Assembly (NCBI RefSeq): GCF_963676685.1
Contig: NC_092345.1
Coordinates: forward strand, 19,282,001 to 19,346,000
Direction of reading: 5' to 3'
DNA length: 64,000 bases
Origin: Mytilus edulis
Taxonomy: Eukaryota
Made by a program: the position numbers and the translations under genes. The notes beneath the pieces are model-generated. The model worked only from the letters and a program-made list of their open reading frames with translations, ran no database searches and was not told the origin of the DNA. Shown here one piece after another: positions 9,322 to 59,200 of this stretch. Each line of letters begins with the position of its first letter. Positions within the stretch are counted from its first letter, which is position 1.

Positions 9322-9489
9322 AAAAGAGGGACGAAAGATACCAAAGGGACAGTCAAACTCATAAATCTAAAACAAACTGACAACGCCATGGCTAAAAATG
9401 AAAAAGACAAACAGAAAAACAATAGTACACATGACACAACATAGAAAACTAAAGAATAAACAACACGAACCCCACCAAAAACTAGGGTG
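9322..9489 (-). mobile_element. Solo inverted copy of the Penelope-like element 3' tail
   Basis: Near-exact reverse complement of ~18980-19144 (aaaagagggacgaaagatacc...cacgaaccccaccaaaaactagg). Confidence 0.85.
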
Positions 9490-9824
9490 CATTTCCGATT
9501 TTTAAAAAAAAATAGGAAATTAAAATGAAATGAAATAATGTACAGAAATTTAAAACTAAAATCATCTTCACATATATATATATATATAAAGTATTTGAAA
9601 ATTCATTAATAAACTTATTAAAGAAATGATGAGGTTATAAACCTAAAAAGACAACAATTATAGACAAAGCTGAACAATGAATCAAAGCATTGTATGCAGG
9701 GATTTATTCCTTAATTTAGAATAATTTCAAAATTTTGTAATGTAACAAATTTTTATTACACAATGTCTTTATTTTCTTGCAAGTACCTCACCGAAATACT
9801 GCATGGCTAATGTGCTGATAATTA

Positions 9825-10847: not shown

Positions 10848-11787
10848 TATTAGGACTAACGGATTTAAAGTCCATCAGCAGAGCAATAGACCCAGTGGTA
10901 GTATAGTATTAACGGCAACAATATATCCGCCCGGGGTGTTTGTTAAGTTATGTTCAAGGTCAAAATATTTAAAATTGGGGGAAAAAATGAGGAGCTTATA
11001 AATCTAAAAGAACAAATTGTATAGGCAAAGCTGGGCATGAATTACAGCTCTGCATGATAACTTTTTCAAGCGATACCCAATTGCGACTCGTTATAAAACT
11101 TATAAATATCGGCAGCTGTTCCTCCGACAAGATTTCATGCCGGATATCAAATAGTAGAACATGACAGCATGAGTTAAAGTTAACATTAGTATGCAGACTG
11201 CCGTGGGCATTTTATTTATCCTGCTCTAATCGGAAGACGATCACAATTACCGTCAAATATACTTTCTTCAAGGTTGTTTCATTGTAATTTGATATAATTT
11301 AGTAAAAAATCTTGACTAACTAGGGATAAAATGGCAAAAGTTAAGCCTCCTGACATTTTTGAAATATCTGTCAAGTTAAATTTTGTATGGTCTAAATAAA
11401 GTTTAGCGATCAACTTTGATTCATATCCGTAAATGGAAATATCCCGTTATAATTTTCGCACATCTGAAATAAATAAAGACTATGGTACATTCAGCATTCA
11501 TTTAGTCAAGACATACGGTCAATCTGATTATCCCGACTTTGGAAACAGTAACATGTTTTTGTATTGGGTTTTGAGTTGTTTGTTTTATTATGATTTTTGT
11601 TAGAATCCTATACATTTTATATACTGCATGCCTTTAATCATTTACAAAAGAATTCGCTATTGGTTCATCCTTTGCACCTTTTGGGGGCTACGTTCTCTAT
11701 TATTTATTTTAAAAAATATCGTCTGCTTTTATTTTTACAGAATGTTTTTGGATTAGTTTGAATTGTATTCAAAAAAGCTTCACCACA

Positions 11788-13581
11788 ATGGCCGAGGGAG
11801 ATGACACGAAGGACAAAAAGAAAAACAGTTTTTCGTCTACTCTTCGAAATTTGGCCGACATGGGTTTAAGTGGCGAAATGGCTGATCTTGAAGTGATTGT
11901 GGAAGGCAAAGCTTTTCCGTGTCACAGGTTAATACTATCAGCAGTTTCTCCACATTTTCGAGCAATGTTCAATTCAGGAATGGTCGAAGCTCAGAAGGGT
12001 CGACTAGAGCTACCTGACATAACAAAGGAGGTTTTTGAGATCATGCGAACATTTATTTATACTGGAAATGTTGAAGTGGACAAAATCACAGAGGACAACA
12101 TCGTTGACCTTCTTCAAGCGTCTGCGCTTTATGAATTACAGGATATGCAAGACGAGTGTGAAAAAGTTCTTGGAAAAGAAATCGGCAATGAGAATTGTTT
12201 ACCTTTATTTAAAATGTCACGAATGTACAATTGTAAGATATTATTTGACAAGTGCAGACCGTTTATTATGGAAGGATTTAATGGTTTGTGGAAAGCTGAT
12301 GAATTTACTACCCTTCACATAGAAGATCTTGAAAGTATTGTTCGCGATGACGAGTTAGTCCCAGTTGATGAGGAGCAAATTTGTGAAGCTATCCTTATGT
12401 GGATAAAAAAGGACCCACAGGAAAGAAAGCAATTTATCAGTAGATTGTTTCGACATGTTCGTTTTGTCAATATAAGTCCGGAGTATTTAATCAAAGAGTT
12501 ATATAGCGAAGATCTTTTAACGAAAGACCCTGAGTGCAAAAGATTTCTGGATGAGGCTCGAGATTTTCATTTGCTTCCGGCAAGACAGCACGAGTATACA
12601 ACCGAAAGATTTCACCTTCGGGACAGTGATGATTACGAGGAGGTGATTCTAATTTTAACAGAATTCGACATGGAACGCTCAGGGTCATTTTATCAAGATG
12701 GAAAATGTCTGTGGGCTTTTAGCTTACAACAGAGTCGATGGTTCACATTATCACCCGTTCCACATCCACTAAACCCAGGGTTACATGTTGGTATGGTATC
12801 GTACAGAACAGATGTATTCATTACAGGTGGTAATGAAACGAAAACCTCGAAAAACATTATAAGATACGATTCCGAAAAGAACGAGTTTACGCCAATTCCA
12901 GAGGCAGTGTTGAAAAAGGGTCGATTTAACCATATGATGGTTGCGGTCCGAGAATCTTTATTTGTCATGGGGGGTAAAATCGAAAAGGCAAGGAAGGATG
13001 GCACATATCAAGTTGTTCCGACTATTGAGGAGCTACCAGTTCATGGAAAAAGGTGGCGGGTAATTGGGGAACTGAAAACAGCAGTACATTCCGCAAGCAC
13101 AGTTGTTGTTGGTGAAAAGGTTTTTGTTTTTGGTGGAATACTAGAAGACGGATCTAACCATAATCGTGTGCAAGTTTTTAATGTCCGTCTTCGTGAAACT
13201 GAAAATGTTTGCGACATTGACAAAAGTATGACTCAACCATTTAAAGTCATCCACTTTAATGGAAAGGTTGTTATATTCACGGCTAAAGGGGAAATGCACG
13301 ATTTTGATCCTTGTGGGATGAAATTCAAATTGATGAAACAAATAAAATCGACGTATCTACCAATAGCAGCTGTTTCACATTATAGGGGGTGCATCATACT
13401 TCTAACCGGGAAACCCGACAACCCGAATTGTTATAATAAAATGTACAGGATGGACGTTAGTGTAAACCCATATAGAATGGATATCATTACGCCTAAATCA
13501 AGCATCAAGCCAAAGCCAATTCATTCATGTCAGAGGGGGAGGGTTAACAAACAATTCATGTACCATACCTATTTTCAATAA
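11788..13581 (+). CDS. BTB/POZ-BACK-Kelch repeat protein (kelch-like, KLHL24-type family; putative CUL3 substrate adaptor), 597 aa, single coding exon
   Basis: Uninterrupted ORF. BTB motif DLEVIVEGKAFPCHRLILSAVSPHFRAMF; BACK region (EEQICEAILMWIKKDPQERK...LFRHVRF); kelch GG motifs VFITGG, LFVMGG, VFVFGG plus degenerate blades. First in-frame ATG is 11788 (ACAATGG context); the ORF track start at 11758 is a TTG. An acceptor ttttatttttacag ending at 11740 indicates a 5'UTR intron. Confidence 0.93.
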   Translation: MAEGDDTKDKKKNSFSSTLRNLADMGLSGEMADLEVIVEGKAFPCHRLILSAVSPHFRAMFNSGMVEAQKGRLELPDITKEVFEIMRTFIYTGNVEVDKITEDNIVDLLQASALYELQDMQDECEKVLGKEIGNENCLPLFKMSRMYNCKILFDKCRPFIMEGFNGLWKADEFTTLHIEDLESIVRDDELVPVDEEQICEAILMWIKKDPQERKQFISRLFRHVRFVNISPEYLIKELYSEDLLTKDPECKRFLDEARDFHLLPARQHEYTTERFHLRDSDDYEEVILILTEFDMERSGSFYQDGKCLWAFSLQQSRWFTLSPVPHPLNPGLHVGMVSYRTDVFITGGNETKTSKNIIRYDSEKNEFTPIPEAVLKKGRFNHMMVAVRESLFVMGGKIEKARKDGTYQVVPTIEELPVHGKRWRVIGELKTAVHSASTVVVGEKVFVFGGILEDGSNHNRVQVFNVRLRETENVCDIDKSMTQPFKVIHFNGKVVIFTAKGEMHDFDPCGMKFKLMKQIKSTYLPIAAVSHYRGCIILLTGKPDNPNCYNKMYRMDVSVNPYRMDIITPKSSIKPKPIHSCQRGRVNKQFMYHTYFQ

Positions 13582-17278: not shown

Positions 17279-17663
17279 ATTAGATCTATCAGATACCTAC
17301 CATCCTATTGCCGATACTTTGAATTTTTGATATCTTTATCAAACTTATTTTTTGTCATTTTATTTATATTTATATATCTTTGCCCGAAGGGCAGTGCGAG
17401 CCCTTGTAATAACGTTCCGTTCGTCGCCCGTTAAATTTTCCTTAAAAATCTTCTCTGATTGAAACCAAAGTTTTTTTCATATTTTATTGGATGTCAACTA
17501 CAAAGTTTGTTAAATTTTAGACATCTGTCCACCTGTTCTAAAATGATCATCAGGACAAAAAAGAATCAAATATTTGAGGAAAATCTAATAACTTGTTTTG
17601 GATTATTTGCACCTGATATATCGATTCTCCCCCATTCTGTAGTACTATTGGTGGGGTTCGTGT

Positions 17664-19144
17664 TACACAAGTATTCCACACTCCAAACTAAAAGAAAAAT
17701 TGAAAGAGTTGGTATTGCTTTGCTTCATAAAAAATAATGGCCAACGTAGATACAAGTATCTCGTCTTAGGGAGGGATAAATCCTACTTTGTAAAGAATCA
17801 CTCTGATTCAAACAAAAAATTCTCTGGAACTGATATTATCAAGATGCTTGATTCCTTGATTGACAACATATTTGTTACGTTCGGAAGACGTGTTTTTCAA
17901 CAGACTGTCGGCATTCCAATGGGAACAAATTGTGCCCCTCTACTTGCCGACTTGTTTCTTTATTATAATGAGGCTGACTTCATGCAGGAACTTCTTAGGA
18001 AGAAAGATAAAAAGTTAGCGATATCCTTTAACTCTACTTTCCTCTATATAGATAATGTTCTTTCACTAAATAATTCAAAATTTGCTGACTATGTGGAATG
18101 CATCTATCCCATCGAACTAGAGAAAAATAAAATTGAGAATGGAAATGGGGAATGTGTCAAAGAGACAACAACCCGACCAAATAAAAAACAACAGCAGAGG
18201 GTCACCAACAAAAAGGATACTACAGATACAGTTAAGTCGGCCTCATTTCTTGACTTACATCTAGAAATTGACAATGAGGGTCGGTTGAAAACAAAACTTT
18301 ATGACAAAAGAGATGATTTCAGCTTTCCAATTGTGAACTTTTAATTTCTAAGTAGCAACATTCCAGCAGCACCTGCATACTGGGTATATATATCCCAATT
18401 GATACGATATTCCCGTGCTTGCATTTTACTATCAGGATTTTCTTTATATAGGGTTGCTGCTCACAAGGAAGCTATTAAACCAAGAGTTCCAAATGGTGAA
18501 GTTGAAATCATCCCTTCGTAAATTTTACGGACGCCATCACGAGTTGGTTGACCGTTATGGAATAACCGTTTCACAAATGATATCGGATATGTTCGAATTC
18601 CTTACGTCGTAAGGGAGCTACCATTTGATTTTTATGGGGGGAGGGCAAGGATGAAATATGAACAAAATAGGCAGGACAGGAGTTTTGAGTAAAAAAAAAA
18701 GTCAGGATGACAATTTGTGTAAAAAAAGTAAGGATAAACTAGTAAAAAACGAGGCAGGACCGAATAGAGTAACAAATAAAAAGGCAGGACAGAGATTACA
18801 ACTAAAAAAAAAGCAGGACAAAATAAAAAATCAAATGGTAGCTCCCTTACTATAATCCCCTTCCCTTTCACGAATGTGACCTACAGAATTTACCGGATTT
18901 GTTATCACATAACAAGTACACGACGGGTGCCACATGTGGAGCAGGATCTGTTTACCCTTCCGGAGCACCTGAGATCATCCCTAGTTTTTGGTGGGGTTCG
19001 TGTTGTTTATTCTTTAGTTTTCTATGTTGTGTCATGTGTACTATTGTTTGTCTGTTTGTCTTTTTCATTTTTAGCCATGGCGTTGTTAGTTTATTTTCGA
19101 TTTATGAGTTTGACTGTCCCTTTTGTATCTTTCGTCCCTCTTTT
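17664..19144 (+). mobile_element. 5'-truncated Penelope-like retroelement relic (RT C-half plus 3' tail) with two nested insertions
   Basis: YTSIPHSKL...QTVGIPMGTNCAPLLADLFL...YIDN (YIDD mutated)...SASFLDL...KLYDKRDDFSFPIVNF*...AYWVYISQLIRY; premature stop at 18342-18344. A 17-bp piece of the tail (18988-19004) recurs at the 5' junction (17648-17664). Confidence 0.85.
18613..18846. mobile_element. MITE (PIF/Harbinger Tourist-like) nested in the Penelope-like relic
   Basis: TIRs gggagctaccatttgatttt / aaaatcaaatggtagctccc; flanks TAA and TTA; internal gcaggac repeats. Confidence 0.85.
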
Positions 19145-22100: not shown

Positions 22101-25100
22101 AAGGTACATTAACGGTCCTGTAATCAGGTGACACATAGTTTTGTGTTGCAAAAGATCTTGTTTTTCTCCGACTGACGTCTTTGCATACAATCCATTGGAT
22201 GTTGGGTTTGAACTGGTTGATAGTTTAGTCTTGCATAGGTGTAAACCGATATTATATATTTATTATTTCCTTCCATGCCCTTTCTTATCATATCTTATTA
22301 TAAAATTCGTTTACTCCCATGCTCGTCCAAAATAACCTTTTCTCGTATTCCAAAATTTGATTCGTTCGGATATTTTTTGTTTGTTTAAGTATTTTAAAAA
22401 TTTAATAACACAACTTACATTGTAATTTAACCCAAATTGTTAACAGTATGCATTGTTCAATCAATGCATTGTTCAATCAAATTATGCATTGAAACAATCA
22501 ATAAAAACTTTTGCACGGATGAGTACATGATCTAACACATACCAAAAGACTTCAATGCATACGACTTTGACTAAATATAATGTTATTTTAATGAACACTT
22601 AAGTGAATATTTTGATGCGTACGGGCACTGGTATACTATGAATTCATTCCCAATAATAATAAAACAAACCACTGAACGAAATAAAAACAACAAAAAGAAA
22701 TAACAGATGCCTTGAGTTCGGCAGTTTGAACATGAATCTAAGTTATTCCTCTTTGTATACTGAAGTAAGACTCATCAGGTATTATATAAAGCGAACGTGC
22801 AATAAAATATGGACGCAAATTATGATATACTGTTTATAATGTTAGTAAAATTTGTGTTAATTATTTGTTTACTATTTTCAACAGTGCCTGTACATGGAGT
22901 AGTGGCCTGCTGCAAGGAAAATTGTCTGTCCCTATCCAATACACCCTCATTTTTCAGTGGCAGTCCAAATTTTCACGGCCATCATTCCAGTCGTCCTTCT
23001 ATTACATGCTCGACCTATCTATTGTATGAATTGTTAATTTGATCTCGTCCCAAATACATGAAGTATTTGCCACTGGACTTTGAGCAATTAAGTATCAAGA
23101 TAAATGTATATGGAGTACTAGTATACATAAGCCGGTACGATACACTAGAGTTTGCGTTTCTTATCATGTTTCTCTTGAAAAAAGGTTTGCTGCTGGCAAA
23201 GAATCGATTAAATTAACGGTCTCAAATGGTGAAGCTGAAATCATCTCATTAAAAGCATTATGTCGTATCTATAATAATTAATTTACATATAGCCTACATC
23301 TTGTATTAGTATCATGGTATGGGTTCATTATGTTTCAGGTTAGAAAAGTTAATAAACTCGAACAGTTACAATTGAAGATGGAAGTTATCAAATAAACTTT
23401 AACAACGCAGTCTGTTGGAGGGACATATTAGATAATTTGCATACGGATTACAAAGAAAATAAAAGTAGGTGGTTAATGTATGTGTGTTAACAGAACAAAA
23501 GCGACCACACAACACACTCTTTGATTTTTCGTCATCTCTTAGTAAACAGTTGAGTCCAAATACAAAACAGGGAGACTGACCATTTGGTTGTAGATTTCTT
23601 TCTGACTTCTGGTGGATAACAACAAAACAAAGGATGTCCTTGCTTTTTGTGTTTTTTTGTTTGTTTTGCTTTTACTGATTTTGCGTCATGGGTGAATATC
23701 CCATATCCTTTCTCCTTATTTTTAAATTATTGTATATTATTGAATGAACAAAACATTGTGAACAAGGGCGTCGTCGTCTTCGGTCTGGGTAATATTATCT
23801 GAATTGTTGTTTGTGTGTGTGTGTGTGTGTTTGTTTGTTTTTTTTTATATATTTTTTACTTGCTCCTATATCATTTCTTCTTTTTTTAATGAGATTTCAA
23901 CTCCAGTTTGGCCAAATGGTCAATGATAGCTTCTTGAGTTACACAGATTACCATGTGAATTTGATAATATTTGTTTTGCAAATTACGTTCATATCGTTAG
24001 GTACGGTAAAACAAAACATACAGTACAACACAGTTTTAACAATAAAGTCAAGAATTACATGTATAAACATTGAACAAGCACATAAAGGTTGTAGTTGTGG
24101 AAAGATATGCAAGAATGAGAACGGACTCAAGATTCATCGCAAAAAGATGGGCTGTTCAGGGGCACAAATTCTTGAACGATGCAAAGGGCCACCTGATGAA
24201 ATGAACCAGAAAACACAACACAGTGTTCAACACCTCCATGTTTAAGAGGAGGAAGTCACAGAAGAAGACGATGTTCATGACAAGTTAGGAATTAATCTTA
24301 ACAGTCAACAGGAAGGAGAGAAAAATCAATGGAAAGAAGAAGACCAACCAACACCACGAATTAAGTGACCAACAGCAGCTTGTAAGAAAGAATGGATTAA
24401 GTTTGATGAGGAAGCATCAAAACTGTTACATTCAGCATTAACAGGAGGTATAGACAGAAAGATAAAGTGCTACAAGAAAGCAGCGCTATATGAACGAGAG
24501 GCATTAAAAGAGCTAAGATGTCAACAGGAGAGAATACAAACGCTGAAGAGAGCAGATAACTTAAGAAAGAACCGAAGGAAAAGAGCTCTCAATTTACATC
24601 TTTGTAAAGAAACTTCTTGTATATAAAAGATCAGGCCAGTATGATTGTCCAAGAGAAGAGGTTGAACATTATATGAGAGACACTCACAGCGATCAAGACA
24701 GAGAAAGAGATCTAGGAGACCGACCCAGATTGATAAAACCAGATGAAACAACAGTAGAGTTTTTAAATATGTCAGAACCAAAACTTCATGAAGTGATGTC
24801 AACTTTTAAAAAAGCGAGAGCAGCATCAGCACCAGGACCAAACGTTATTCCATACAGAGTTTATAAGAACTGTCCATTCCTCGCAAACCAACTATAGAGA
24901 CTTATCAAAGTAATATTGATAAGAAATCGGTTACCAAATGAGTGGTTTTATTTCAAAGGAGGGAGAGTCTAAAGAGCTGAAACAGTTTAGAACCATATCA
25001 CTTTTCAACGTTGAGAGAAAGATTTGTGTATCAATCTTCGCAAAACGGGTTTCAACCTATATGCTTGAGAACAACTATATTGACACCTCAGTTCAGAAAG

Positions 25101-26095
25101 GTGGGGTACCAGGAGTAACAGGGTACCTCAAACATACAAACATTTTAAAAAAGATTTTCAAGGAAGCCAAAGAGAACAAAGATGATTCGAATGACCTGTG
25201 GTTAGACCTGGCAAACGCTTACGGAAGCAAACCACACAAGCTAGAAGACTTAACCCAGAAGAAATACCACATCCCTGGTAAGGTTAAAGAAATGCTTCAG
25301 CACTATTTCAACAACTTTATAATGAAGTTAACAGTTGCAGACTACATAACAGCACGGCAAAGTCTATAAGTCGGCATTTTTATAGGATGCACCATATCCG
25401 TAGTCTTATTCTCAGCAGCAATGAATATGCTACCAAAATCAGCAGAAAAGATAAGCAGGTGACCAGTAATGTCATCTGGGGTCAGTCACTACCAACAAGA
25501 GCATTCATGGATGACATGAAAATAACAGCAATGTCAGTCCTGGAAGGTAAGTGGATGCTACAAGATCGGTGTGAGCTTGTAGACTTGACACGCATAAGGT
25601 TCTTGAAAGCCTTCAAAGTGAAGGAGTCTGATATTGAAGAAAAGAAAGTGCAGAACAGAAAAATCAGAATTGGAGGAGATATCATTCCAACAAGCATAGG
25701 AAAACCAGTCAAAAACTTGGGCAAGTGGTTTAGAGACAGCGAAAGTATATATGAGATGGTACAACAGGCAGGAAAGTGGATGGACATTATTGACAAGTCT
25801 GGTTTACCTGTAAGTGCAAGGCATGGTGCATATCAGTATAGAAAATTTTAGAGAGGATTTGCAACAGACATTTACGCAAATGGCTTAGGGTTCCAAAGAG
25901 AATTAGCAGCATTGGTTTGTACAGTTCAGTACAAAACTTCAACAACTACTGTCTTCTATTAAAGAAGAGTTGAAAGTCACCAAAACCAGACAAGTTAAAA
26001 ATCCTTTCACGGATTTGGCTATACTTTTTGGACCTTTTGGATTAAAGCTCTTCATCTTTTATATAAGCTTCGGATTTCAAATATGTTGGCTACGA

Positions 26096-26139
26096 GCATC
26101 ACTGAAGAGACATATATTGTCGAAATGCGCCTCTGGTGC
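26096..26139 (+). ncRNA. Type I hammerhead ribozyme motif, copy 1
   Basis: GCATCA-CTGAAGA-GACA-TATAT-TGTC-GAAA-TGCGCC-TC-TGGTGC: stem I GCAUCA/UGGUGC, CUGANGA core, stem II GACA/UGUC, GAAA, short stem III, UC cleavage site. Confidence 0.85.
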
Positions 26140-26437
26140 AGGAAAATTGGTACCGTTAATGTTATTCCTACCACTGGGTAGATGCCTCTGCTGGTGGACT
26201 GTTAGTCCCCGACGGTATCACCACCTCAGTAGCCAGTACTTCGATACTGGCATGAAAATGCGGATTTTTTGTATTATCAAAATTTGCTGTTACAAAACGT
26301 TAGAAACTATTATAAATTAAGGAATGTATCTCCCTCATGCAAAGCTCTGATTCGTTTCACGGATTTGGCTTTACTTTGTGGACCTTTTGGATCATAGCTC
26401 TTCATCTTTTATATAAGCTTTGGATTTCAAATATTTA

Positions 26438-26475
26438 CTGAAGAGACATGTATTGTCGAAATGCGCATCTGGTGC
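26438..26475 (+). ncRNA. Type I hammerhead ribozyme motif, copy 2 (5' strand of stem I deleted)
   Basis: CTGAAGA-GACA-TGTAT-TGTC-GAAA-TGCGCA-TC-TGGTGC with palindromic stem III TGCGCA. The upstream GCATC is lost in a ~14-bp deletion relative to copy 1. Confidence 0.75.
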
Positions 26476-29400
26476 AGGAAAATTGGTACCGTTAATTTTA
26501 TTATGATGTTAAGAGACAGTAAAGATGACAAGGTGAAAGAAGCACATGTTGATGTAAGGACAGGACGGAAATGGGTGGCCAAGAGAGCTGTTGAAGATGC
26601 AGAGAGTCATTTAAGACATGGAGACCAGGTGGGAGTGGTAACATCAGGTAGTTTTATTTTGGGTAACATTCAGCAACCATTGTGGCAGTCAGCAGATGCA
26701 AGACACAGAAGGGAACTTGTTGAGCAAAAGGTTCGTCGTGGGGAAGAAGAAAATCGTAAAGAATGAGCCGTTTGTATGAAACAACAAGGGCAATATATGA
26801 AATGGGAGATAGCAATACCAAGAAAGATCAATTGGCATAAGATGTGGAGAATAGACGGGTAGATGATAAGCTTACTACTTAGATCAGTGTACGACGTACT
26901 ACCAACACGCACAAATCTTACAATGTGGAAACTGATTACAGACCCTATAGTTGTAAGTTGTACGGCAAGCCGGCAAATTTAGAACACATTTAGTCGTCTT
27001 GCATAACATATCTAAAGGATGGAAGATATATATGTCGGCATGACCAATGCCTTCGAGAAATAGCATCAGCAAATCACTGGGAGATGCAAACCAACGTTAG
27101 GAAAAAGACCACCTTCCAAAAGTGGTTCATAACAACAACCCTCCGACCAGACATTGTGCTGTGGTCCAGAATCAGCAGACATATCATTCTTGTAGAGCTA
27201 ACAGTATCATGGGAAACAAGACTGGAAAAGCTCATGAGAGAAAGCTTGTGAAGTACCAGTAATTGGTAACAGATAATCAGACAAGAGTTGGAGGATATGG
27301 TATTTTTCAGTAGAGGTAGACTGTAGAGGCTTTGTTTCACAAACATTCTGGAGGGCCTTGGGGTCCCTATGACTAACTGGCCCAGTAAAGAAGAAGCTTG
27401 GATGGAAAAGTTGGGAGACAGGCAGAGGAAGCTTCTGGTTGGGTATGGAGGAAGAGAGAAGAGCAGTTGAAGAGCTAGCTTTTTCCTGGCTGAGCTTGAT
27501 AAACTCAGTCGGCGCATCCCCTGCGTAGACAGCGCCGAAAATGTCGAGCTAGGAGAGGGGATCCACCTGATGATGGAACTAGCTGAGCAGTGGAAACACT
27601 GTATTTAAGGTTTAACTTAATGCAAATTGCTAAAATAATTCTTATAATAACACTTAATTTTGAAGTTGTCTTGTGTAAAAACATTCAGTTTGCATTTTAT
27701 CTTTGCATAGATATTTTAAAATGCTCTGTTGATATGTAGAAAGGAAAAGACAACGGAATTGTATTCGGCAGGCTGATGACCACAAAAATATCATCAACTA
27801 TTTTTTTTCTTTCTTGTCGACAACAGTCAAGCTGAATGTGTAAAGCAGAGAGAAATTCTCAAATGCATTTTCTTGATAATTTACATTTTCTATCTTAATA
27901 TTGATCCCCTTTTCGACCTTTATTTTTAATGTAACTTATATAAGAAATAAACTCCAAATTGTGTTTCAGACAAATTCATGCATTGCTGGGAAATTAGGAA
28001 GAGAAATTAAACCTTTTTCGACAATTTTGTTTTATTAATATACATCTTCATTGTACATGAAGCTTGTCTATTTTGAAACGCGACCATCTACGTGTCTTTT
28101 TTTTTTGCACGAAAACGTGTAACAAAACTTGGCATATATGTCTGGTTAGATTATAGAAATATTGTCGAGATAGATTTCTATTTCATGCATTTGTAAAACA
28201 CTGACAAGCTTAGGTATATTAAAAAACTTGATTGATAAGTGTAGTTCTCTGGAGCAAGGGAGACCTGTTTGAAATGTTACAAATGATGTAAAGACCCAAG
28301 GTTACCTACATTTCTTTAGCATGTTCGAATTGTTTATGTCTGAGACGGCAAACAAAATTGAATCTTACAGCATCTAGATATGATATAAAATGCAGTTTTT
28401 GCAAAATATAAAATAAAATAAAACGTGAGTCGTCTAGACAAAAACGTGTGTGGAATCTTTATCAGCTGTTTTAACTAGAAACTGCTGGATCAGCATATTT
28501 AACCACTAACATGTCTTATGAGAAAAAGACGTAAATTATCAAAATTTTAATAGAATTTTATAATAGAATTGTTAATAAGAGAGCAAATGCATTTTATTTT
28601 TCATGTGTATTCGCATAATTGTTTGCATTTGACTACCATGTTTATTTGGTCATTGCCATTTATTGTAAATATTGTCTTATTGTCTCTATACAGAAATATA
28701 GCCAAAATAACCATCTTCGAAAGCGATGTGTAATGGAATTGAAAAGTGCATGTTTTAATTATAGTCTAGTTATGACCTGAAAGGTAAAAAAAACTTTAGA
28801 AAAGTCAATTGTGATTTCCTGATGCTTTGAATCACAGATGATATCCTGTTTTAAAACAGTAAACCCAGGCTAATTGCATAATTTAAAAAAAAACTTTATT
28901 AGTAAATGTTTCGAAAATGAATAGTCTATACTAATCTATAATAGGACGTTCTTTCACATGATGAATTTTGCAGTATCTCAATTTTGGGTACCCATTATGT
29001 TACCCGATATTCCAAAGGTAGACTTTTGTAAACAAACAAGTACACAGAGTTCAGAGTGCTACCCTATACGATAACATGCAATTCAGTAAATGTGGTACTG
29101 GCATATCCATATTTCGAAATTCAAATACATATATAAATAAGGAGATGAAGTATACTAGTATATGTATATTTTTTTTTTAATTTCAAATGACTTTGATTCG
29201 GTTGTGTAAAACATGCAATTAAGGATGAGTATGCCATCTTGTAAATGGGATACAATCTTGATTATATAGAGATGACACGTGCAGGCCAACAAAAAGCTCG
29301 GGCAGTACCCGGACATATAGTAAGAGAAGGTTTTAATAAAGTATATGCATATAAAACATATTAAACGAATAGTTACAAACGTTCAAAGTCTTGGTAAAAA

Positions 29401-47200: not shown

Positions 47201-50200
47201 GAAGCACCTTAGAAAATATTATTACCTTAAATGAAATGATCCTAAAGAAACTAACAAGTGATAAACATAAGAATGTTATGTTTAAAATACTAACATTAAC
47301 CTTCACCCTGTGCAGTCGAAATAGACTATATTTTTTGTAATTCAAGAATTTTCTTTGTTTAGATTTGGTTTTGTTAGATGAAATAATTAATTGCAAATAC
47401 ATTAAGATGACAATTTTATTTCATTTGCTGTGACTTGGATTTTTTTCAGGGAGAAGCAGGAGGCAGAGGACCTGACGGAAATCCAGGTGCTGCAGGATTT
47501 GTTGTGAGTCCTTTATTTATTAGAGTCAATTTATAATACTTGAGTTCTGAGATACTGTAAATTATATATTTGCTTGAAAACAAATTTTTCTTTTTCTTTT
47601 TTTAATATTTTGATTGAGGTAAAATCAGATACTTTCTTATATTATAGGGAGCTCCAGGTATCCCAGGAGGCAGAGGCGAGCCCGGTAAACCAGGAGAGCC
47701 TGGACCCCCTGGAGAAGCAGGCAACACTGGACGCACAGGAGCTAATGTAAGTATATATTGTTTATGTTTCTGCTCTATGGTCGGGTTGTTGTCTCTTTGA
47801 CACATTCCCCATTTCCATTCTCAATTATATATAATGAAAATGTTTTTGTTATTCACCCTGATTTTAAAAGGATTTTTTTAAGTTATATATCATTAGCAAA
47901 CTGAAATGTTCAGAAAAGAAAAATTTAAAATAACATTACTGACCATACACTTTTGAATTTTGAAACGAAATTCATGAAGAGTTTTCGTTGGACTTGGTTT
48001 GTAAAAATAAGGAATTATGATGAATCAATTAAGTTGAAATTTTTTTATGAACTTGCTTTATTGTACCAATGTATATGCTCTCAATGGTCAAAAAGATTTT
48101 GCAGAAAGGTTTTGTTAAATTTATTTCAAGGGAATAATTTTAATTTTTTTAATTTAGGGAGAGCGAGGAGTTCCTGGTGTGACTGGTGAGCCTGGTACCC
48201 CAGGAGAACCAGGAGCAGCTGGACCAACTGGTGGAGCTGGCAGGGATGGAGAACGAGTAAGTTGTGATTTATAACTATGAGTTGTTATATTCTGAGTTTT
48301 TGTTTGTATGATGATGATAGACTTTCGTTCATGATTTGAGCAGGTATTTCTTAAATAAAAACTTTTCGAGGGATATCATATAGGAGGAAAAAAATAAAGT
48401 ATGTACATGTATAATTCAAGAATAAAATAGGTCAAATAAATTGAGACTCTTAAGTTTGGTTAAAAGATTTTATTTCAATTTGTACATTGTATGAATTTGT
48501 TTGAGGGAAATCATTGCTAACACTGCATGCCAACATCCTCTATCTATTCTTAACAGATCGAATTGTCATATATAGAGTAAAAGTGGAAAGGCTGTGAATT
48601 ATTTTGCCAAATTTAAATAAATTTTGCATTAAAGGGGGCATTATCTCTAAGAGCGTTCGTCTGAAACACTTTAGTATAAAAATATTTTAGTCATTGTTAC
48701 TGATATACATTCTCATATAATGGATAAAAATTCATTATAAGTAAGCTCATGATTTTAGTTGCCATGTCACAGCCCCCATGTGTATTATTTGCTGACTACC
48801 TTAAAAACTATATTTTGTTATCTCTTTTTAGGGACAACCAGGTGATCGAGGAGAGAAGGGAGATGAGGGACCTGAAGGACCAGTGGTAAGTTGTTGTCAT
48901 GGGAACCATAGAGGATTTTCTTGTAAACAGACTGATCAAAACATATTTCTGTGATAATGTTTTTCAAATGAATTATAACATTATTTAAGAAATGTAAAAG
49001 TATCTTTCTGGTCCTCAGACAATATGTGGCTAATGTCAGCAAAAAACTGCCGTAGACATGTATTTATCATCAAACCAAAACATTTATAAGGTGTAAGAAA
49101 ATGCATTGCTAAAATTTAACTGTTTTCAAACTATAGTTAAAAAGCGATAAATTTAAAACGTTTTGTAAAACTTGGAGTTTATACCTCTGTTTTTGTTGGA
49201 ACGTTAGACGTCCTGTAAGCTTGATCGTTTGCCAAATGTAATCACAAGTGAAAATGCTTTGATGATCGTTAAACAAGTTTTTTCAAGTGTATGTTGTAGT
49301 CTGAAAAAACTATTAGCAACTTTATAAAACAAAGAAGGGAAATTTTGCAATAGAAAATTTTCTCCATATTTCAGTTACAAATTAGAAAAAAAAGACACAT
49401 ATTTTTCCAGTTTTTCAGTAGATTGTGTTCTCATGGAGACCCATGGTCTTGTTTGTTTTTATCAATTTTATGTTATTCCATGTCAATATAAAAAAAGATG
49501 TTGTATGATTGCCAATGAGACAGCTCTCCTCAAGAGACCAAATGACACAGAAATTAACAGCTATAGATCCCTGTACGGCCTTTAACAGTGAGCAAAGCCC
49601 ATACCGCAAGTATTTTATCAAATGTATGTGCTATTTTAAATATTTTTAATGTTATGATGTTTTGCTTCAACAGGGTCCCCAAGGAATGAGAGGACCAAGA
49701 GGAGAACGTGGACCTAAAGGAGAAAGCGTAAGTATACTTAAAAAGTACAATTGATCATGAAATTGTTAAAATTAATTTAGAACATGTCTTGTTCATACCC
49801 TTTAAATTTTCTTCAGATAGAAAAATATTTTCATCTTAAAATAACATAAAAAATATTTTGAAGTTTTGACAATGTTAATGTAACAATAGATTACAGGTAT
49901 ATGATTTTTGTCTCATGAAACTTTTAAGGGAGAATCTGGAACCCCAGGAGCAGATGGAAATGAGGGAAAAGTAGGATCTCGAGGACCACCTGGTTCCCCA
50001 GGTCCCCTTGGTATAATGGGAGAGCCTGCTCCAAAAGGACAACCTGGTGATGCTGGTGCACCCGGAGAGAATGGTGCTCGTGGTGCCCCAGGAGAGAGAG
50101 GACAACAAGGAGTAGTGGGAGAAGTAGGCTTGGCAGGACCAGGGGTAAGAATTCACTTGTATGACTTGTAAGGACTACACAGTTGATGTCAAAATAAATC

Positions 50201-53200
50201 ATAGTTGTCTCCTGTTTCAGCCATTTTTTTTGTATAAAAATGTTTTACAAAAAAAAATATTTTTTCATCCAATTAAAGTTGGTACATTGTACTACATTAT
50301 TATATTTTATTGAATTTGTACAAAAATAGGTATGGTACTTACTTCTTTTGTCGTATTTAAGAAGTTGATTTTGTTCTTGGTGTATATATTAATTTTCACG
50401 ATTTTTATATTTGGTTAAATCTGTATTTTTTATTACCTTTAATACACCTTATCGCTAATCCCGGCTGACCCGGTCGCTTGAACTTTTGACGTCAACAACA
50501 ATCACTTTTCCATTGTGGCGTCAGATATTTTGTTTTATGACGTCAAAATTTTACGGGAACCTGTGTGATATCCAGCAATGGCGGACAAATAGCGATAAGG
50601 TGTATAACAATGGTATATCGTCAGAAGAAGAAAACAAGATTGCAAGGGTAATTTTACTGACCAGAAAATCACCAAACTCAGTATGATTTAAAATAATATT
50701 ACATTTTAGGGTATACCTGGATTACCAGGGGCTAAAGGAGGAAGAGGGTTCGCTGGACCTAAAGGAGAACAAGGAGCAACTGGAACTGCAGGACTAGGTG
50801 GACCACCAGGACCAAGTGTAATTAAGTCATAATTAGTAGAAACTCATGTTGATAAGACTGTTTGAACATTGAAGCATAAATATTGATGAAAATACATCTG
50901 TTACTTTTTTGTTGACTCATGTTTAAATGCATAGGGCTTTTTTTTTGTTATCTTATCACTGCAATAAAAAAAAAATCTTAACATCAATTTTAAATTTTGA
51001 TTAAAGAAAGGTTTTGTGGTATTTAAATTGATTTCAGATTATATTATTTTCACCCTTACCGATGTTAACTGCAGATTTTGTAGTGCTTTTTTTTGGCTAT
51101 GATATTTCTTATTTATGAATTATTTATAAGATACATCTTTAACTACAGGGACGTAACGGTCTCAATGGAAGGAAAGGAGTTCGTGGTGACAGAGGAGTAC
51201 AAGGTCTTCCTGGACAACCTGGAGCAACAGGAGGTCTTGGACCACAAGGACAGTCTGGCCCATCTGGTGAAGATGGACCTCCTGGTCCATCCGGAGCTGA
51301 TGGCATAAAAGTAAGACATTTTTAAGATTTCACTTTTGAAACTATATTTGTTTTAAAAACATGAAAATTACTTCCGTTTTTGTTTCTAAATCACTTAATT
51401 CTTTAACTAAAAAAAATATATGATACAATAATGAAATAATGAATTCCAAATCTATGAATTGTTTTCACAATTTTTGAAATGAAAGATACAAATTTGCAGA
51501 AAATACATTCGATATATTATATTAGCAAAAATCAATGTAAGAATTTAGATTATGTATGTTTTTAAACGCAAAAACACATTATATATAACCATGCTAATGA
51601 TTTGTCTTTTTAATTACATTTGTGACATATTAAACAAAATATAGTGTAATAATTTTCTTCCTTCAGGGATCACGAGGAGAGGTTGGTCACATGGGCCGTC
51701 CAGGAGAATCTGGATCACCTGGATTTGCAGGAGAACCTGGATTAAAGGGAGCTAGGGGAGAAGATGGTGAACAAGTAAGTCATATTCTATTTACAGGTCA
51801 ACTGACCCCTCATTTTGAAAACTAGGATTTTGCTGGAGATATTTAAAATTTATTAAAGTTTTGATATAAACTCTTTGCTTGATATTATTCAACACTACTG
51901 ATTTTGATAAAATGTACTGAATTCTTTGCAGCCTATTTAAAAAATGTTTAATTAGTTATATGTTAAAATTAAAGCACAATAATATTCTTAAGAAATTATA
52001 ATTATAATACAGAGCCTTCTATAAACACTGCTATTATTACTCAACTAAATTTATTCTAAATAATGAAATAGTTTTAATGGTATGTAGTCATGACATATAC
52101 ATTGATTACATAGATTTTGCTTTATCATATGAATCTTTGCAAACTCATCTCTGAAATCTGTGTGTTCAGACATTTCTGAGGGTTTTAAATTATATCACTT
52201 TGTTTGGTAACAATATTTGGCCTTTAGATCAGAATGTCAGATAAATAATTTTTTACATTTATATTGTATTTTTAGGGACAAACTGGACCCGTAGGAGCAG
52301 CTGGACCACCAGGTGAAAGTGGACTCCCAGGAGATGGTGGACAACCAGGAGAAAGAGGACCTGCCGGTCCACCAGGACCAGCTGTGAGTCATCCTATAAA
52401 TAAAAGTTTTCTCACTTTTAGTGATACATTCTGAATAATTTAAGATACTTGTAGTCATAAAAGAATACAATATATTTACTCGAGGGTAGGAATGGGGGAC
52501 CCCACATGACTAATGACGGTAAAATATTTGTTGAAGTAGCGTTAAAGATAAACATTTTACTCAGTTTAACACTAACATAGCTACAATGAAATTTTAGGAT
52601 GATGATAAAAAATTAAGGCTTAGTTGACTCTAACTGTAGCCAAAAAAGGATGTTTGAAGTTTGACAATAAAGGGCATTCCTACCCTCTTACTTGTGAGTG
52701 GAGGAATTTGAACATGTGGGTATTTACCTTTTTGATGTTACTGTAATCAAAGGCAAGGGTGACATGTTCTTAGAATTCTGATGATTTGACTCTTAGCAAA
52801 TTTAGAGACTATATGCGTGTCTATTTCCTTCTATTAAGGGAAGTTATTACCTCCCCTGTAACTGTATAGAAGTTTTCTAATACAGGGGAAAATTGGGATT
52901 TATGATGATTAATTGTATACTTAAGTGTTCAAACTTTCAAATAGGTATGTATATGCTTTCATGTCACGAAAATTTGTGTTTTATCCTAAATTTGATATTT
53001 ATCATTATCATTATTTGTCATTATAGGGAATGCAAGGAGAAGCCGGAAGACCTGGACAAGATGGTTCCCCTGGTAAAGCAGGACCACAAGGAGTTACTGG
53101 TAGCCCTGGACCCATAGGAGATGTTGGACATCCAGTAAGTAGACTGGTTTCTAGATATACTATATTAGTCGAGCAAAGAAATAACTTATTTATAAGAAAA

Positions 53201-56200
53201 ACTTTAATTCTATATTCCATATTTTAGCCCTCAAAGTTATTACTTGGAAACAAAGGGGGATTGTTTGAGATGATTAGCTTGACCTAAAATCACCATTTGT
53301 ACAGGTCAATTTATATGTTTCATATTTAGGTTTGCTACTTTCATTTTGTGAATAAATATGAAACTGATATTTTTTCTTTCAAGGGACCCCCTGGACCAGA
53401 TGGTGCACCTGGACTCCAAGGACAATCAGGAGAAAAGGGAGTTGATGGAGATATTGGACCACCAGGAGCTGTTGGACTAATGGGATTCAATGTAAGTATT
53501 CTTATTTTTATATATATTTAAATAATATTTAGAGGACTTGAATTTTAATAAATCAATGGGAAAAGCCTTTGTTTAGCATATCATTATAAAGAATGTGTAA
53601 GTTAAAAAGGATATATTAATTCATTTTTATTGTGTCGATTGACCAAAAAATAAATACTGTTTTTTTAACTTGATTTTGTGATTTTATCAAATACAACATG
53701 AAAGCTAAAGGGAATTTTTGTTATGTTTTGTTAAACTCATATTTCACCTCTACCCACAAAATTGAATGGCCCATGAATAATTATGAATCCAGAATAATTC
53801 ATATTATTCATTGTTTAAAGACTTATTTATACAAGTCATGTTGTACCTGGATTCTGTGAAAGGGCTATAGTATAAAAGATGAATTGAAACTGTTATTAGA
53901 ATTTATTTTATGGTATATATATACTTAATAAAATTAAGATTATTATGATTTTGTTTGTAGGGACCTCCAGGAGGCCCAGGACCCGCTGGACCTGCAGGAC
54001 AACGTGGAGAAAGGGTATGTTATTACATTTTTAACCACAAGAGAGAAAAGTTATAGCTTGATATCAACTCAAGATTTTTAATTTCAGTATAACTATAAAA
54101 GCCATCTGCCTGTTTAGATTTGTTTTTTGTTTTTCATGTTTATTGGGTTATCTAGTAAAATTTTATCTTAATATTGTTGTCAGTTTTATTAATAACATAT
54201 TATTTGACTTTGCTGTAATATTTTTAATGTTGTTTTTTTTAGGGTGAACCTGGACCAAATGGAGCACCAGGTCAATCTGGAACCAGAGGGCCTCCTGTAA
54301 GTAAATTTAAATGCTTGTATTGTTCGTAAATCAATAACCATAACAGGCGGGGACAAAGACAGAGAAAAAACTCCGCTTTTTTGTAACGAATTTAACGATA
54401 AAATGAATTCTGATACATCTGTAAAGTAATAATGTAAACCAACTTTTTTTCAAGAGCAATTTTCCCCCTGACTTTTGTAAGTAGAAAAATAACTTCTATG
54501 TAGATCTTTTCTTACTTAATATAAACAGAAGGAAAAAAATGAGGTAGTTATCATACATTATTTTAATGATACACCAAACAAAAAACAGTGACCTTGGATT
54601 TATTTACACCTATCAACTTTCATTATTCAGCAAAAAGGTTAACAGAAAAGAAGCTAAAAAAAATAGCAAGGAAATATAAATTGTCAAAAAATTCATATTT
54701 GTTTCAATTTTAGGGCCCGCAAGAAAAAGAGTTATTATTTAAACATTGTTTTAATTTTAAGGCCCACAAGGTCCACAAGAAAATGAGTTTATTATTTAAA
54801 CAATGTTTTAATTTTAGGGCCCACAAGGTCCACAAGGAGTCACTGGAGAGAGAGGTGGAAATGGAGAAAATGTAAGTTTTTATCCAATTTCTAGATATGT
54901 TTGATTTTTTTTTTTAATTTCTATTAAAAGATATTTCTATACATTCTTATGAAAGTTTAGAGTGAGCAATTTTTATGAAGAGAAATACATCTTCTTCAAT
55001 ATAAATTCACATTGTGACATTAGTAAGGATACAGAAACAAGCAAAAAGTGCTTATATTAATCTGTCTCCTACTTGTATTAGATTCATATACAATACAAAC
55101 TAGTTTAGAATACTAGTGTAGACTTTGACAATTTTCATTCTCAATTTCATTTTGACAAATATCAATTTATTTTCAAGGAATTCACATAAATTTAGATTGA
55201 ATAGATGACGTATTACTATGTACTTCAACAACAACAAAAAATCAATTTTGAGTTCATTTCATTTCTAAATAAATAAGAGAGCCATATTTGTCCTAATCAA
55301 ACATATGTATTTATGTCATTGTTTTGTACATTTTGCCATTTTGTATTATCTAGGGAGACAAGGGAGACCCTGGACTTCAAGGCATGAATGGATTACCAGG
55401 ACCAGAGGTTAGTTTTTCTATTTCCCGTCAGATAAAAAGAAAAATGGTATCACTCAACTTGTTTTATTGCTACAAGTAAAAAACTATATTGCATTAACAT
55501 TTCTTTATTGCCAGTCGACCAACCAAAATTCTCGATTAATTATTTTCATTTCACTAAAAATGCCAATGAAGAGTGACTGGTCTTACACTGAAGGTACCCT
55601 GATTTGACCAGTAGTCTTGTCAAAATCTTTAAATAAAAAACAACTTGATCTTACTTATTCGCCGTTTCCACTTATGTTATTGAAACAACAGAATTGAAAA
55701 AATACATCGCTAAGACAATATTTAAAAAAAATTACTAAATATGATGTTACTGTTTTAATAGGGACCACCAGGTGAACCAGGATCTAGTGGAGCACAAGGA
55801 CCCCCAGGCCAAAGAGTAAGTAGCTCATCCATTTTATTTTTATTTACTGTTAATGTCTTACTTCGCTCTTTGATACAAATGGAAAATTGCCTTAAAATTA
55901 CTACTCAGTCAATGGATCCAAAATTAAGGACTGAAAATGTTTTTCCTTGAAAATGACTAAATGTTTCATAATCTGTTTTTTTTTTCTCTTTTTTTTTTCT
56001 ATAAATTTATATGGTAAGTGTGTTGTGAATTTGAAATGGAAATTCTGATAATTATTGTTACACATTCTTGTAATTTATCGAGTTAAGTATTAATTAATTT
56101 TATATCTTCGTTATTTTTTCAGGGTCCTGATGGAAGACGTGGAGACCCCGGAACTGATGGAAGCCCAGGACCTTCTGGACCACCAGGACCAACAGTATGT

Positions 56201-59200
56201 CAATTATTTTAATCCTCAAATTTATGTATTTTGATAAAAATCTACATACACCAAAATCTTCTCATAGCATTCACTTCATTATGATTATTTATATAAGTGA
56301 CCTCAGAGGAACTAAGAAGGCTTTTCACAAATGTAATTACACTTATCTTCGAAGAGCACAGATAGTCCAGGAAAGTCACTTTAAACTTTGTAAGATGGAA
56401 GAAGAAATGGATCTCTATATTTTAAAACTGAAAATGTCCAAACAATCTTCCTTTAGTTACATCAAGGTTTCCTTTAAGAAGCCTTTGTCTTCGAAATAAG
56501 TTGTAAGCATATAAATCAAACTAAATATATACAGATATAACAATAGATGGTTGGACTAAAGGTAAAAAAAATTAGCTCTAAGATTTGAAACATAATAAAT
56601 TGGGAAAACGGTCTTTTTATTTTTAGAATCATGTGATTGTGTTTCCATTTCATACAAAGTATCCTCTCATTTTTTCAAGGAGGCTTGTTTAACACACAAA
56701 TGTTTATTTTTAGAATGTTATTTTGTATGTTGCATCATATATTTAGAAATTAACAACTTTTTTTTTAAATTTAGGGTAGACGAGGACCATCAGGTGAAGA
56801 CGGACGCAGGGTATGACATTATACTTTTTCTCCTAATATTTTGAAAAAAGAATGACTCAATTTAGATTAAATATATGTAAATTCCAATTCAATATTTCAA
56901 ACAGTTAGAATGTTACTTTGTTTAGTTTGCATTAAACACAAATTTAAAACACATTTCTGGAGTTTTTTTCCACACCTTACAAAAAATAATTTTTTCAGAA
57001 AAAATTTCAAAATAAAAAAGCAACAATTTGATCAACTCTTCTCTCACCCAGACGCAGATGGTTTAAACGATACAAAAAAATTTAACACCAATTGAAATTG
57101 TGGACCTATCATTTTTTTTTTTTTAACTTTGTGATGATTGTTTCCTTCTTTTTAACCATTAACTTTTGTATTTTGCATAAACATGTATTAAGTTGTTCAT
57201 TTATATAGATTCATTCTTTGTTGTAAAAACAATTGTTTAACTCTTTTATTATATTTTTTTAGGGATCGATGGGAGAAGCCGGTAATCCAGGACCACCTGT
57301 AAGTATGATTCATCTCGCCTTCACTTTGACATTCAAACGTATATCATTTCCCCAATTTCAGAAAATTTTCAATATATATAAATATGATTTTTTTCAGAAA
57401 AAAGTCTTTGCCCAAAATGATGTTGCAATGTTCTCACATTTGAAATTGAAAACAATGTGTCCTTTTGTTTTTACTACTACCGCAGTATTTATAAACAAAG
57501 TTAAAAAATCTTTTAAAAAAGATAAGTTGTGTAACTAATCGTGATGTTAAGCATATGGTACGTTTTTTTAATTTTAGGGTCAACCAGGACGAAACATTTA
57601 TGGTGGTGCAATGACCCAGTGGTTCAGAAACCCAGCACAAGGAAACAAAGGATGGCAAGGAGATGATCCAATTCCAGCAGAAGAGGTATATAAATATAAA
57701 AAAAAGATATGTGACACATTTATTTAGAGGTGTGGCCTATTTGTATGCTTGTTTTAACTCCATATGTAACTGGCATTCATAAAATATCTTCATTTCTTTT
57801 GCTGTTAATTATCAAATTTGAACACATAACCATATTAAATTAATTAATGTGTATATAATGAAATGATGTATTGGCCAAACAATTTTAACAAAACAATTTA
57901 GGCTTAAAAAAATAATTTTTGAAAAACATTTTCTTTGCAGATTGATGCTGATGTTTTCAAAGCATTGGAAGAAGTAACTCTCCAAATTGAGAAGATCAGG
58001 AATCCAACTGGTGCACAAGATTCTCCAGCACGCACCTGTGAAGATCTCAAACACCATAATCCAGATATTGAAGATGGTAAGTGGTATCAGATTCTAATGC
58101 ATTTTGGGTAATATTTTCCAAAAGTGTACACCAAAACTTTTTGATTGGTTTAAAACATCCTAAACAATGGAAATCCATCCAATGACTTTTATGTATTTTC
58201 ATTTTGGTGACATAGTTATTCTGAATCTGAAACAGCGAATTCAGTATCCTATTTATATTAATAGATGTCTGACAGCTGATTTATTATCCTTTAGTTCAGT
58301 TCTATAAATGGTGTGTAAATAACACAGACTTCTTTTCTAAATGACCTTAGTATGTGCAAGGTCATTTTTTATCCCAACATTGTGCAGATTTCTTACCTTA
58401 TCACATGAGTTTTTGTGTGAAACGAAATGAAATAATAGGCTATATCCGAATCCTTTTTTAATGTGACCACTTTGTTTTTACAGGTGAATACTGGATTAAC
58501 CCTAACCTTGGACCGATATATGATGTTATTAAAGTAAGATGTGACTTCAAGAGGAAGAGAACATTTACATGTGTACAACCAGAAGTTAAAGTGGTAAGTA
58601 TTCACTTAAAAAATAATTAATTTGTGTACATTTTAAAAAGCTGTTTATAAAGTTTATTTTTTTAACAACTTCTCATAATTTTATAAAATTGCATGTACTT
58701 ATACATCAAATGTAACAAAAAATTTAGAAAAGTGAACTGTTTTATCAAGGAATTATATCTCTTATGCTAATTTGACACATTTATTCTTAAATTTACAAGT
58801 GTGGACACAGATCAGTGTGGATAGTACTTGTTTGATTAGTGTTGGTATGTTTGACCTTGTTCTTAAATTCATCATTTGACCTTGTTCTTAAATTCATCAT
58901 TTGACCTTGTTCTTAAATTCATCATTTGACTTTTTTTCAGATTGAGAATGTTAAAGTAGAATCAAAAACATCCCACACCTGGCTTTCTGATGTACTAGGA
59001 TCTAAGGTAAATGAACACTATTTCTGCATTGGGAGTAAGGAGGGTCTGGATGAGATTTATAGAAGTGCAAAAATAAAGGCTATTAAATAAAAAAAGAGAG
59101 AAAGAAAACAATCACAAACACAGAAATATGAGACACCACATCCAGATCCTTGTTACTTAACAACAGATCATAAGCCCTAGCTAGAAAGTGATGGTCTTAC

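Follow-up and report, generated by a model that had tools for sequence, protein, structure and literature searches.

A decayed retrozyme copy in Mytilus edulis, from a family that ends beside a predicted hairpin shared with Naiad retroelements

Which enzyme writes short non-coding hammerhead repeats (retrozymes) into animal genomes, and does it matter when the hammerheads of one copy are damaged? The question is raised by a locus in a stretch of 64,000 nucleotides of the Mytilus edulis genome (NCBI RefSeq assembly GCF_963676685.1, contig NC_092345.1, positions 19,282,001 to 19,346,000, forward strand), hereafter the window, to which all five-digit coordinates refer. The original prediction held that two damaged hammerheads at this locus complement each other across copies. 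Our analysis points elsewhere: the locus is probably a decayed 1.4-unit retrozyme copy, whose family ends beside a predicted hairpin shared with Naiad elements, and which a Naiad reverse transcriptase (RT) likely wrote from circular RNA. The locus itself is ordinary and its complementing lesions matter little; the mechanism at the level of the family is more informative.

The insertion and its family

The following features were distinguished at the locus:

26002..26502, forward strand: retrozyme insertion, 5'-truncated, about 1.44 units of a 350-bp family, stopping at the family's fixed 3' point
26096..26139, forward strand: copy 1 of the type I hammerhead, in which A>C at 26131 breaks pair 15.2-16.2 of helix III
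26438..26475, forward strand: copy 2 of the hammerhead, which keeps an intact core and an intact palindromic helix III and has lost the 5' strand of stem I
26170..26233, forward strand: Naiad-type leader hairpin, P1 (7 bp), P2 (6 bp) and P3 (4 bp), arranged about an internal loop that does not vary; putative RT start signal
26496..26503, forward strand: fixed 3' end (TTTTATT), 33 nt beyond the cut site; TTA at 26501-26503 is common to the target
25995..26001, forward strand: 5' junction, made up of the target's TTA (25995-25997), which recurs at the 3' junction, and of four A foreign to the family unit

The first description holds for both type I cores, for the lesions in them and for the position of the cut, and the repeat is real, its span being corrected from 25998..26500 to 26002-26502. 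In copy 1, stem I is formed by GCATCA (26096-26101) and TGGTGC (26134-26139), the core is at 26102, stem III reads TGCGCC and the family cut site falls after 26133. Copy 2 has its core at 26438, keeps TGCGCA and has its cut site after 26469; a 14-bp deletion after 26436 removed the 5' strand of its stem I, the repeat period being 350 ahead of the deletion and 336 across it. With helix III broken in copy 1 and stem I deleted in copy 2, the locus lacks the two working hammerheads flanking a full monomer that define an active retrozyme. The label "minimal" did not survive: the dimer-dependent hammerheads of Penelope-like elements so named have helix III absent or of one pair, whereas this family has the canonical invertebrate form, with a 2-bp helix III and a tetraloop. 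Over the 151 nt compared, 10 substitutions separate the two copies, which indicates that the insertion is old. Compared with a young array (L060), it shows 33 substitutions and the 14-bp deletion over 515 nt. Its GC content is 0.38, the hairpin at 26170-26233 has decayed (changes at 26180, 26213, 26224 and 26226), and at its borders there is no long target-site duplication, just the shared TTA and the four extra A at the 5' side. An Rfam search of the window gave no match at gathering level (best RAGATH-1, E=5).

The retrozyme call itself was borne out by copy number, since the 350-bp monomer is multicopy, with arrays on all 14 large contigs. Forty scored candidates of 2,853 gave 89 genome matches to the element, most of them near the full query length at 90-92% identity, and the intact core 19-mer has 5,251 exact occurrences in the genome (1.37 Gb) vs. 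0 for its reversed control; the repeat is therefore not due to chance. The family has the features of non-LTR (long terminal repeat) retrozymes: (i) dispersed tandem repeats of 150-450 bp, (ii) low GC content, (iii) no LTR features (primer-binding site and polypurine tract not searched) and (iv) a hammerhead per unit, both cores being damaged at the window locus. It fits the kind published for Mytilus galloprovincialis, a non-LTR retrozyme whose tandem repeats measure 350-390 bp, with some 5,000 type I hammerheads, GC content under 45% and, as in the genome studied here, two related hammerhead families (Cervera and de la Pena, 2020; PMC7229834). The window copy is decayed, unlike the retrozymes presented in the accessible text of that paper, where mussel retrozymes of this size undergo self-cleavage and give abundant, mostly circular RNA (PMC7229834). 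Three RNA runs from two studies cover the present family hundreds of times over; a circle junction and a tandem junction have the same sequence and the reads cannot tell them apart. No pile of RNA ends was seen at the hammerhead cut, an absence that the library type makes uninformative.

Fixed ends and a hairpin shared with Naiad elements

Insertion ends were mapped in 60 regions with intact-core matches, taken by position from the first 24 Mb of contig C1. Fifty-five of the 63 elements stop 32-37 nt past the cut, and the 5' ends are scattered over the whole unit. In reads and contigs of other animals, unlike flanks pile up at 26502-26504. Retrozyme insertions have neither a poly(A) tail nor a long target duplication. 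Among the cores of the 60 regions, 82 of 100 are intact and 18 damaged, the sample being biased to intact cores.

The sequence beyond the fixed end leads to a candidate partner. A search for GIY-YIG endonucleases yielded one locus weakly matching the unit just beyond this point, and it proved to be an intact Naiad. Three Naiad families (N1-N3) with intact open reading frames (ORFs) of 995-1012 aa were recovered by protein search, all combining an N-terminal GIY-YIG, CxC, DKA and a C-terminal RT in one ORF; in N3, whose ORF lies at L205 1080-4064, Pfam recognizes RVT_1 at 640-849 and, weakly (E 0.036), GIY-YIG at 130-167. This is the organization described for Naiad, which likewise forms partial tandems and has no canonical hammerhead according to the available text (Craig et al., 2021; PMC8557442), and N1 matches the start of the Naiad_Mgal protein by eye (PMC8557442). 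The canonical hammerhead motif CTGANGA, the only motif searched, is absent from the sense strand of the three Naiad units examined.

In N1, N2 and N3, the retrozyme segment that follows the fixed end sits between the element's own 3' end point and its ATG. N3 and the retrozyme unit share 68 nt with 85% identity (E 4e-18) and nothing else, and the window hairpin matches the N3 leader at 81.5% (E 9e-12). A hidden Markov model (HMM) built solely from the three Naiad leaders recognized the window copy (E 8e-12) and gave 56 matches in the 60 retrozyme regions; in 257 kb from 48 control loci of Penelope elements with a C-terminal endonuclease it had no match at E<=10. The ends keep a common register to the hairpin: -5..+1 with mode -2 for the retrozyme (n=42), -6..0 for N3 (n=20) and -8..+1 for N2 (n=15). 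In each of the four RNA runs, the points at which N3 fragments break off have their mode at -2, counted from a hairpin start at L205 1002, and 96 exact end-to-leader junctions of N3 are present in the genome. The retrozyme thereby shows what would be expected of a non-autonomous element dependent on Naiad: it shares a terminal cis-element with the autonomous family, its fixed 3' ends keep the register of that family, and it is truncated at the 5' side.

One and the same nested hairpin is predicted for six copies drawn from Naiads and retrozymes, with folding z of -2.5 to -5.4 (-1.6 for the window copy). In an alignment of 12 sequences, 95% of cells are paired and both sides change in 6 of 17 pairs, a level reached by 0 of 500 shuffles; this covariation is supportive of a predicted hairpin of about 65 nt, not proof of it. 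Helices also covary by eye in published leaders (ACCGAAC/GTTCGGT in Naiad_CGi, ACCAGGT/ACCTGGT in Naiad-1_Pfla; PMC8557442). The core 11-mer of the hairpin occurs 15,687 times in the genome vs. 115 for a control. In the accessible supplement of PMC8557442, 11 of the 12 matches to the core 10-mer lie in Naiad leaders and a second motif adds one leader; the core opens 12 Naiad consensuses among at least 54 Naiad rows, those of an oyster, mussels, a hemichordate and a fish included, in an exact-word search that misses variants. The best Rfam match of the N3 leader (E 2.1) is far under gathering scores. We tentatively propose, at somewhat below even chances, that a large branch of Naiad RTs, from bivalves to hemichordates and a fish, uses the 65-nt hairpin as a portable start signal, that the mussel retrozyme is a circle-making hammerhead joined to a borrowed Naiad hairpin, and that any RNA circle with the hairpin would be written likewise.

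The same Naiad-type hairpin lies 51-53 nt past the cut in a second hammerhead family (helix III ACGCGCGT; loci L011, L012, L098, L109 and L157). A third family (L129, L152, L154 and L164), with helix III ATCCGGAT, ATCTAGAT or ATCTGGAT, has a different 3' sequence and no hairpin start within 75 nt of the cut. In RNA run X21, 58 molecules stop at 26237 (depth 233), just 3' of the hairpin, and in each of X21 and X22 10 molecules start at 26247; these ends, not listed for X24, may reflect a stop of the library RT, an RNA 5' end or an artefact.

The template and the proposed mechanism

The ends also bear on the RNA that was copied. In nested pattern counts, 2,525 of 2,806 matches (0.90) remain when the pattern is extended by 5 nt within the post-cut arm, and 2,196 of 2,525 (0.87) when it is extended by 5 nt over the cut. 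A linear monomer released by the hammerhead and copied from the fixed end would give 33 nt; it was rejected as the template because matches do not drop at the cut site and just 1 of 63 5' ends lies there. From the lack of such a drop we infer that the template was a ligated circle or uncut RNA. Identical units were found in 5 of 21 arrays, with 13 of them in one array (L133), and the first units of 10 arrays are 2-20 changes apart, a pattern that favours repeated copying of one monomer per array.

Three arrays have an unusual layout. Locus L132 (G000:C9:53972500-53977500) is an alternating A/B array with a period of 702, in which units 2 and 4 are identical and have a hammerhead with GTAA for GAAA; it could derive from a dimer circle or from duplication at the DNA level. 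Locus L131 (G000:C11:20804500-20810000) has a three-unit pattern with all hammerheads intact, a 3-bp deletion in units 3 and 6, and a shared change in units 4 and 7. At L064, a retrozyme array is interrupted where the 3' end of an N2 Naiad sits on the opposite strand.

In the mechanism that we propose, intact arrays would be transcribed, cut by the hammerheads and ligated, by host ligation, into 350-nt circles. A Naiad protein, most likely of N3, would bind the hairpin and nick AT-rich DNA; after a few U/A base pairs with the target, the cDNA would start 0-5 nt 5' of the hairpin, and the RT would circle the template until drop-off, leaving arrays of N plus a fraction of units. The window copy would be the product of 1.44 turns. 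It later lost both monomeric hammerheads and part of the hairpin and would, for that reason, be a dead end. An internal RT start has been demonstrated in vitro for PAc, a Penelope-like element (Frangieh et al., 2024; PMC11167929).

Several points weigh against this mechanism. Binding by the protein, the start site and the use of circles are all deduced from genomic scars. The end sample was picked by the intact 19-mer on one chromosome and includes two pairs of local duplicates; N1 ends at -4..+1 in just 4 of 8 cases. The structure used for covariation was drawn from the same sequences, with two Naiads only and N1 omitted (21-nt insert). The HMM controls were drawn from the top 150 of 858 GIY-YIG candidates, with five protein clusters among the long loci, and another partner with the same element is possible. 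Identical units could also come from homogeneous source arrays, and the assignment to the published mussel retrozymes was made by size, copy number, GC content and the second hammerhead family, not by the clone sequences MN642551-76.

The template is the part of the mechanism most open to an alternative. A Naiad RT might have copied uncut linear multimeric RNA, circles being a by-product; read-through of the cut and the fixed ends would be explained equally well, and the main template of PAc in vitro is unprocessed RNA, for which hammerhead cleavage is unneeded (PMC11167929). We consider this unlikely in view of the mostly circular state of mussel retrozyme RNA (PMC7229834), the 13 identical units of one array set against larger differences between arrays, and the 82 of 100 cores found intact in a sample that favours them.

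It is also conceivable that the shared hairpin reflects ancestry or another role, such as that of a promoter, a translation signal or a self-cleaving RNA making 3' ends, and is no RT start signal. The hairpin does stand directly ahead of the Naiad ATG, its layout loosely resembles, by eye, a hammerhead core without helix III, and no Rfam match assigns it a function. This explanation is nevertheless improbable: the hairpin is the sole segment common to N3 and a non-coding 350-nt unit, the ends of Naiad and retrozyme alike keep register with it, and cleavage at the hairpin would open the circle and limit insertions to one unit, whereas arrays reach at least 13. The RNA depth of the N3 leader is too low to show cut ends.

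Part of this picture is already known. The retrozyme family has been described in kind, and a general link to Penelope-like elements has been proposed (PMC7229834; Li, Clavereau and Pollet, 2026, bioRxiv 10.64898/2026.07.22.740005). The accessible text on mussel retrozymes names no fixed 3' end and no partner, Penelope-like elements being candidates just from shared hammerheads (PMC7229834), and the available account of Naiad mentions neither a conserved leader hairpin nor a retrozyme link, with non-autonomous partners given for algal Chlamys only (PMC8557442). In PAc, a Poseidon element of Anolis, RT likewise begins within the RNA, downstream of the site cut by the hammerhead; it depends on sequence 3' of that start, and the DNA cut by PAc is AT-rich. 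PAc differs in being autonomous, with a C-terminal endonuclease, two starts in an AC-rich stem-loop and linear RNA as the template tested (PMC11167929). In Xenopus, retrozymes share a terminal sequence with Penelope-like elements, whose enzymes they are proposed to borrow; in its accessible parts, that preprint has a vertebrate focus, with no mollusc among the listed groups and Naiad in a coral only, and is without end mapping or a shared structure (10.64898/2026.07.22.740005). No Naiad-retrozyme link, fixed end or hairpin was found in the literature searched; subscription papers, Repbase reports and some supplements could hold them.

The enzyme mobilizing animal retrozymes has so far been argued from shared hammerheads and co-occurrence. 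The present evidence points to a specific intact family (N3), a 65-nt RNA element and a start position, which can be tested in vitro. The proposed partner clade is without hammerheads, the reverse of the usual argument, and no candidate for a cis-acting signal in Naiad transposition would precede the hairpin.

Complementation of the hammerheads and the surroundings

The claim from which the analysis started was that the damaged hammerheads complement each other in cis and that a single cut of the locus, after 26469, is a functional trait. Its geometry stands: a complete core with all 16 standard pairs can be built from copy 1 (5' half) and copy 2 (3' half), and this cross fold ranks first among the three active folds of the locus, at 6.0 kcal/mol above the ensemble vs. 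9.1 and 17.2 for the monomer folds. The cross fold is likewise favoured over monomer folds in intact arrays, and helix III is an 8-nt palindrome with four sequences over three hammerhead families (non-palindromic single variants exist too); dimer cleavage may thus be a real trait of the hammerhead family. In newt, axolotl and the pseudo-LTRs (pLTRs) of Penelope elements, a palindromic helix III likewise permits a two-copy fold; there helix III is absent or of one pair and a dimer is needed, whereas the mussel monomer cleaves alone (PMC7229834, PMC7761336), a monomer construct without a second copy in cis reaching a kobs of about 0.1/min (PMC7229834).

The importance of the fold did not stand. 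A model that leaves tertiary contacts out of account predicts an occupancy of 6e-5 for it, and of 1e-8 once the flanks are included; with flanks it lies 11.3 kcal/mol above the ensemble, vs. 1.2 and 3.2 in two intact arrays. The lesions are unique or sporadic: the deletion junction occurs once in the genome, and the stem III C variant has 9 occurrences vs. 5,251 intact. Propagation of the two lesions as a pair was rejected, as the junction is unique and none of the other 8 C-variant loci has a following copy with the 14-bp deletion. Double damage is ordinary, since every core is damaged in 3 of the 29 multi-core elements. At 26131, A (the family allele) was read in 551/554, 310/311 and 214/214 reads of the three RNA runs; depth in the host flanks is 0-1 with no RNA spanning them, and the sampled animals may lack the insertion. 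A search of sequencing runs listed no holder recorded as RNA, which counts neither for nor against. The host element is dead. By these comparisons the lesions look like private decay, and cross-copy cleavage appears incidental. Some cleavage in vitro is plausible, if rather doubtful; a biological role is not plausible, and complementation as a working feature is very unlikely.

The host and a Naiad relic occupy the following positions:

24565..27500, forward strand: heavily broken non-LTR retrotransposon, host of the insertion (bounds approximate)
17663..19142, forward strand: 5'-truncated, broken copy of Naiad family N3, in three pieces with 92-94% nucleotide identity to N3

Nesting of the repeat in a non-LTR retrotransposon, as predicted, was corroborated by 8 of 11 paralogous host loci, at which the uninterrupted site was seen. 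The host shows motifs of an RT, a zinc knuckle and a restriction-like endonuclease by eye; RVT_1 is weak in the window copy and is found, with zf-RVT, in the paralogs (E 5e-9 and 2e-7, respectively). A joined empty-site form is present in one DNA contig (joint 25994-26501, 3 letters fitting both sides), which is only about 90% alike and is possibly a paralog.

That a long interspersed nuclear element like this host, or a hammerhead-bearing Penelope/Neptune element, mobilizes the repeat is the least probable explanation: the type I hammerhead is shared with canonical Penelope-like elements, whose pLTRs are matched by Xenopus retrozymes (10.64898/2026.07.22.740005), but the canonical Penelope loci examined carry other hammerheads and are without the hairpin element, and retrozyme insertions lack a poly(A) tail and a long target duplication. 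A canonical Penelope partner was rejected on the further ground that its BLAST matches were retrozyme fragments outside the ORFs and not common to the copies of a family, and its loci hold no leader element. Near Penelope ORFs with a C-terminal endonuclease, hammerheads with a short helix III, unlike those of the retrozyme, were observed at L127, L129, L150 and L160.

Penelope-like relics had been placed 4-8 kb from the repeat as the likely source of a trans-acting RT. One of them is the Naiad copy at 17663-19142 (6.9 kb upstream); the second, at about 21.8-22.1 kb, was recognized by eye alone in translation, and tblastn did not recover it. Membership in N3, the likely partner, supports that suggestion in part, and nearness is uninformative for an enzyme acting in trans; closeness of the relic was rejected as evidence, N3 3' fragments occurring at many unrelated loci.

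Elsewhere in the window, the reverse strand bears 164 nt of an N3 3' end (9324-9487), 100% identical to the intact element, and two retrozyme-related fragments of greater age (9588-9787 and 10861-10922). On the forward strand, 11713-13581 holds an intact open frame of 622 aa with BTB, BACK and Kelch domains, and 50045-59689 contains collagen-like repeats, with an exon for a fibrillar collagen C-terminal domain at 59426-59686.

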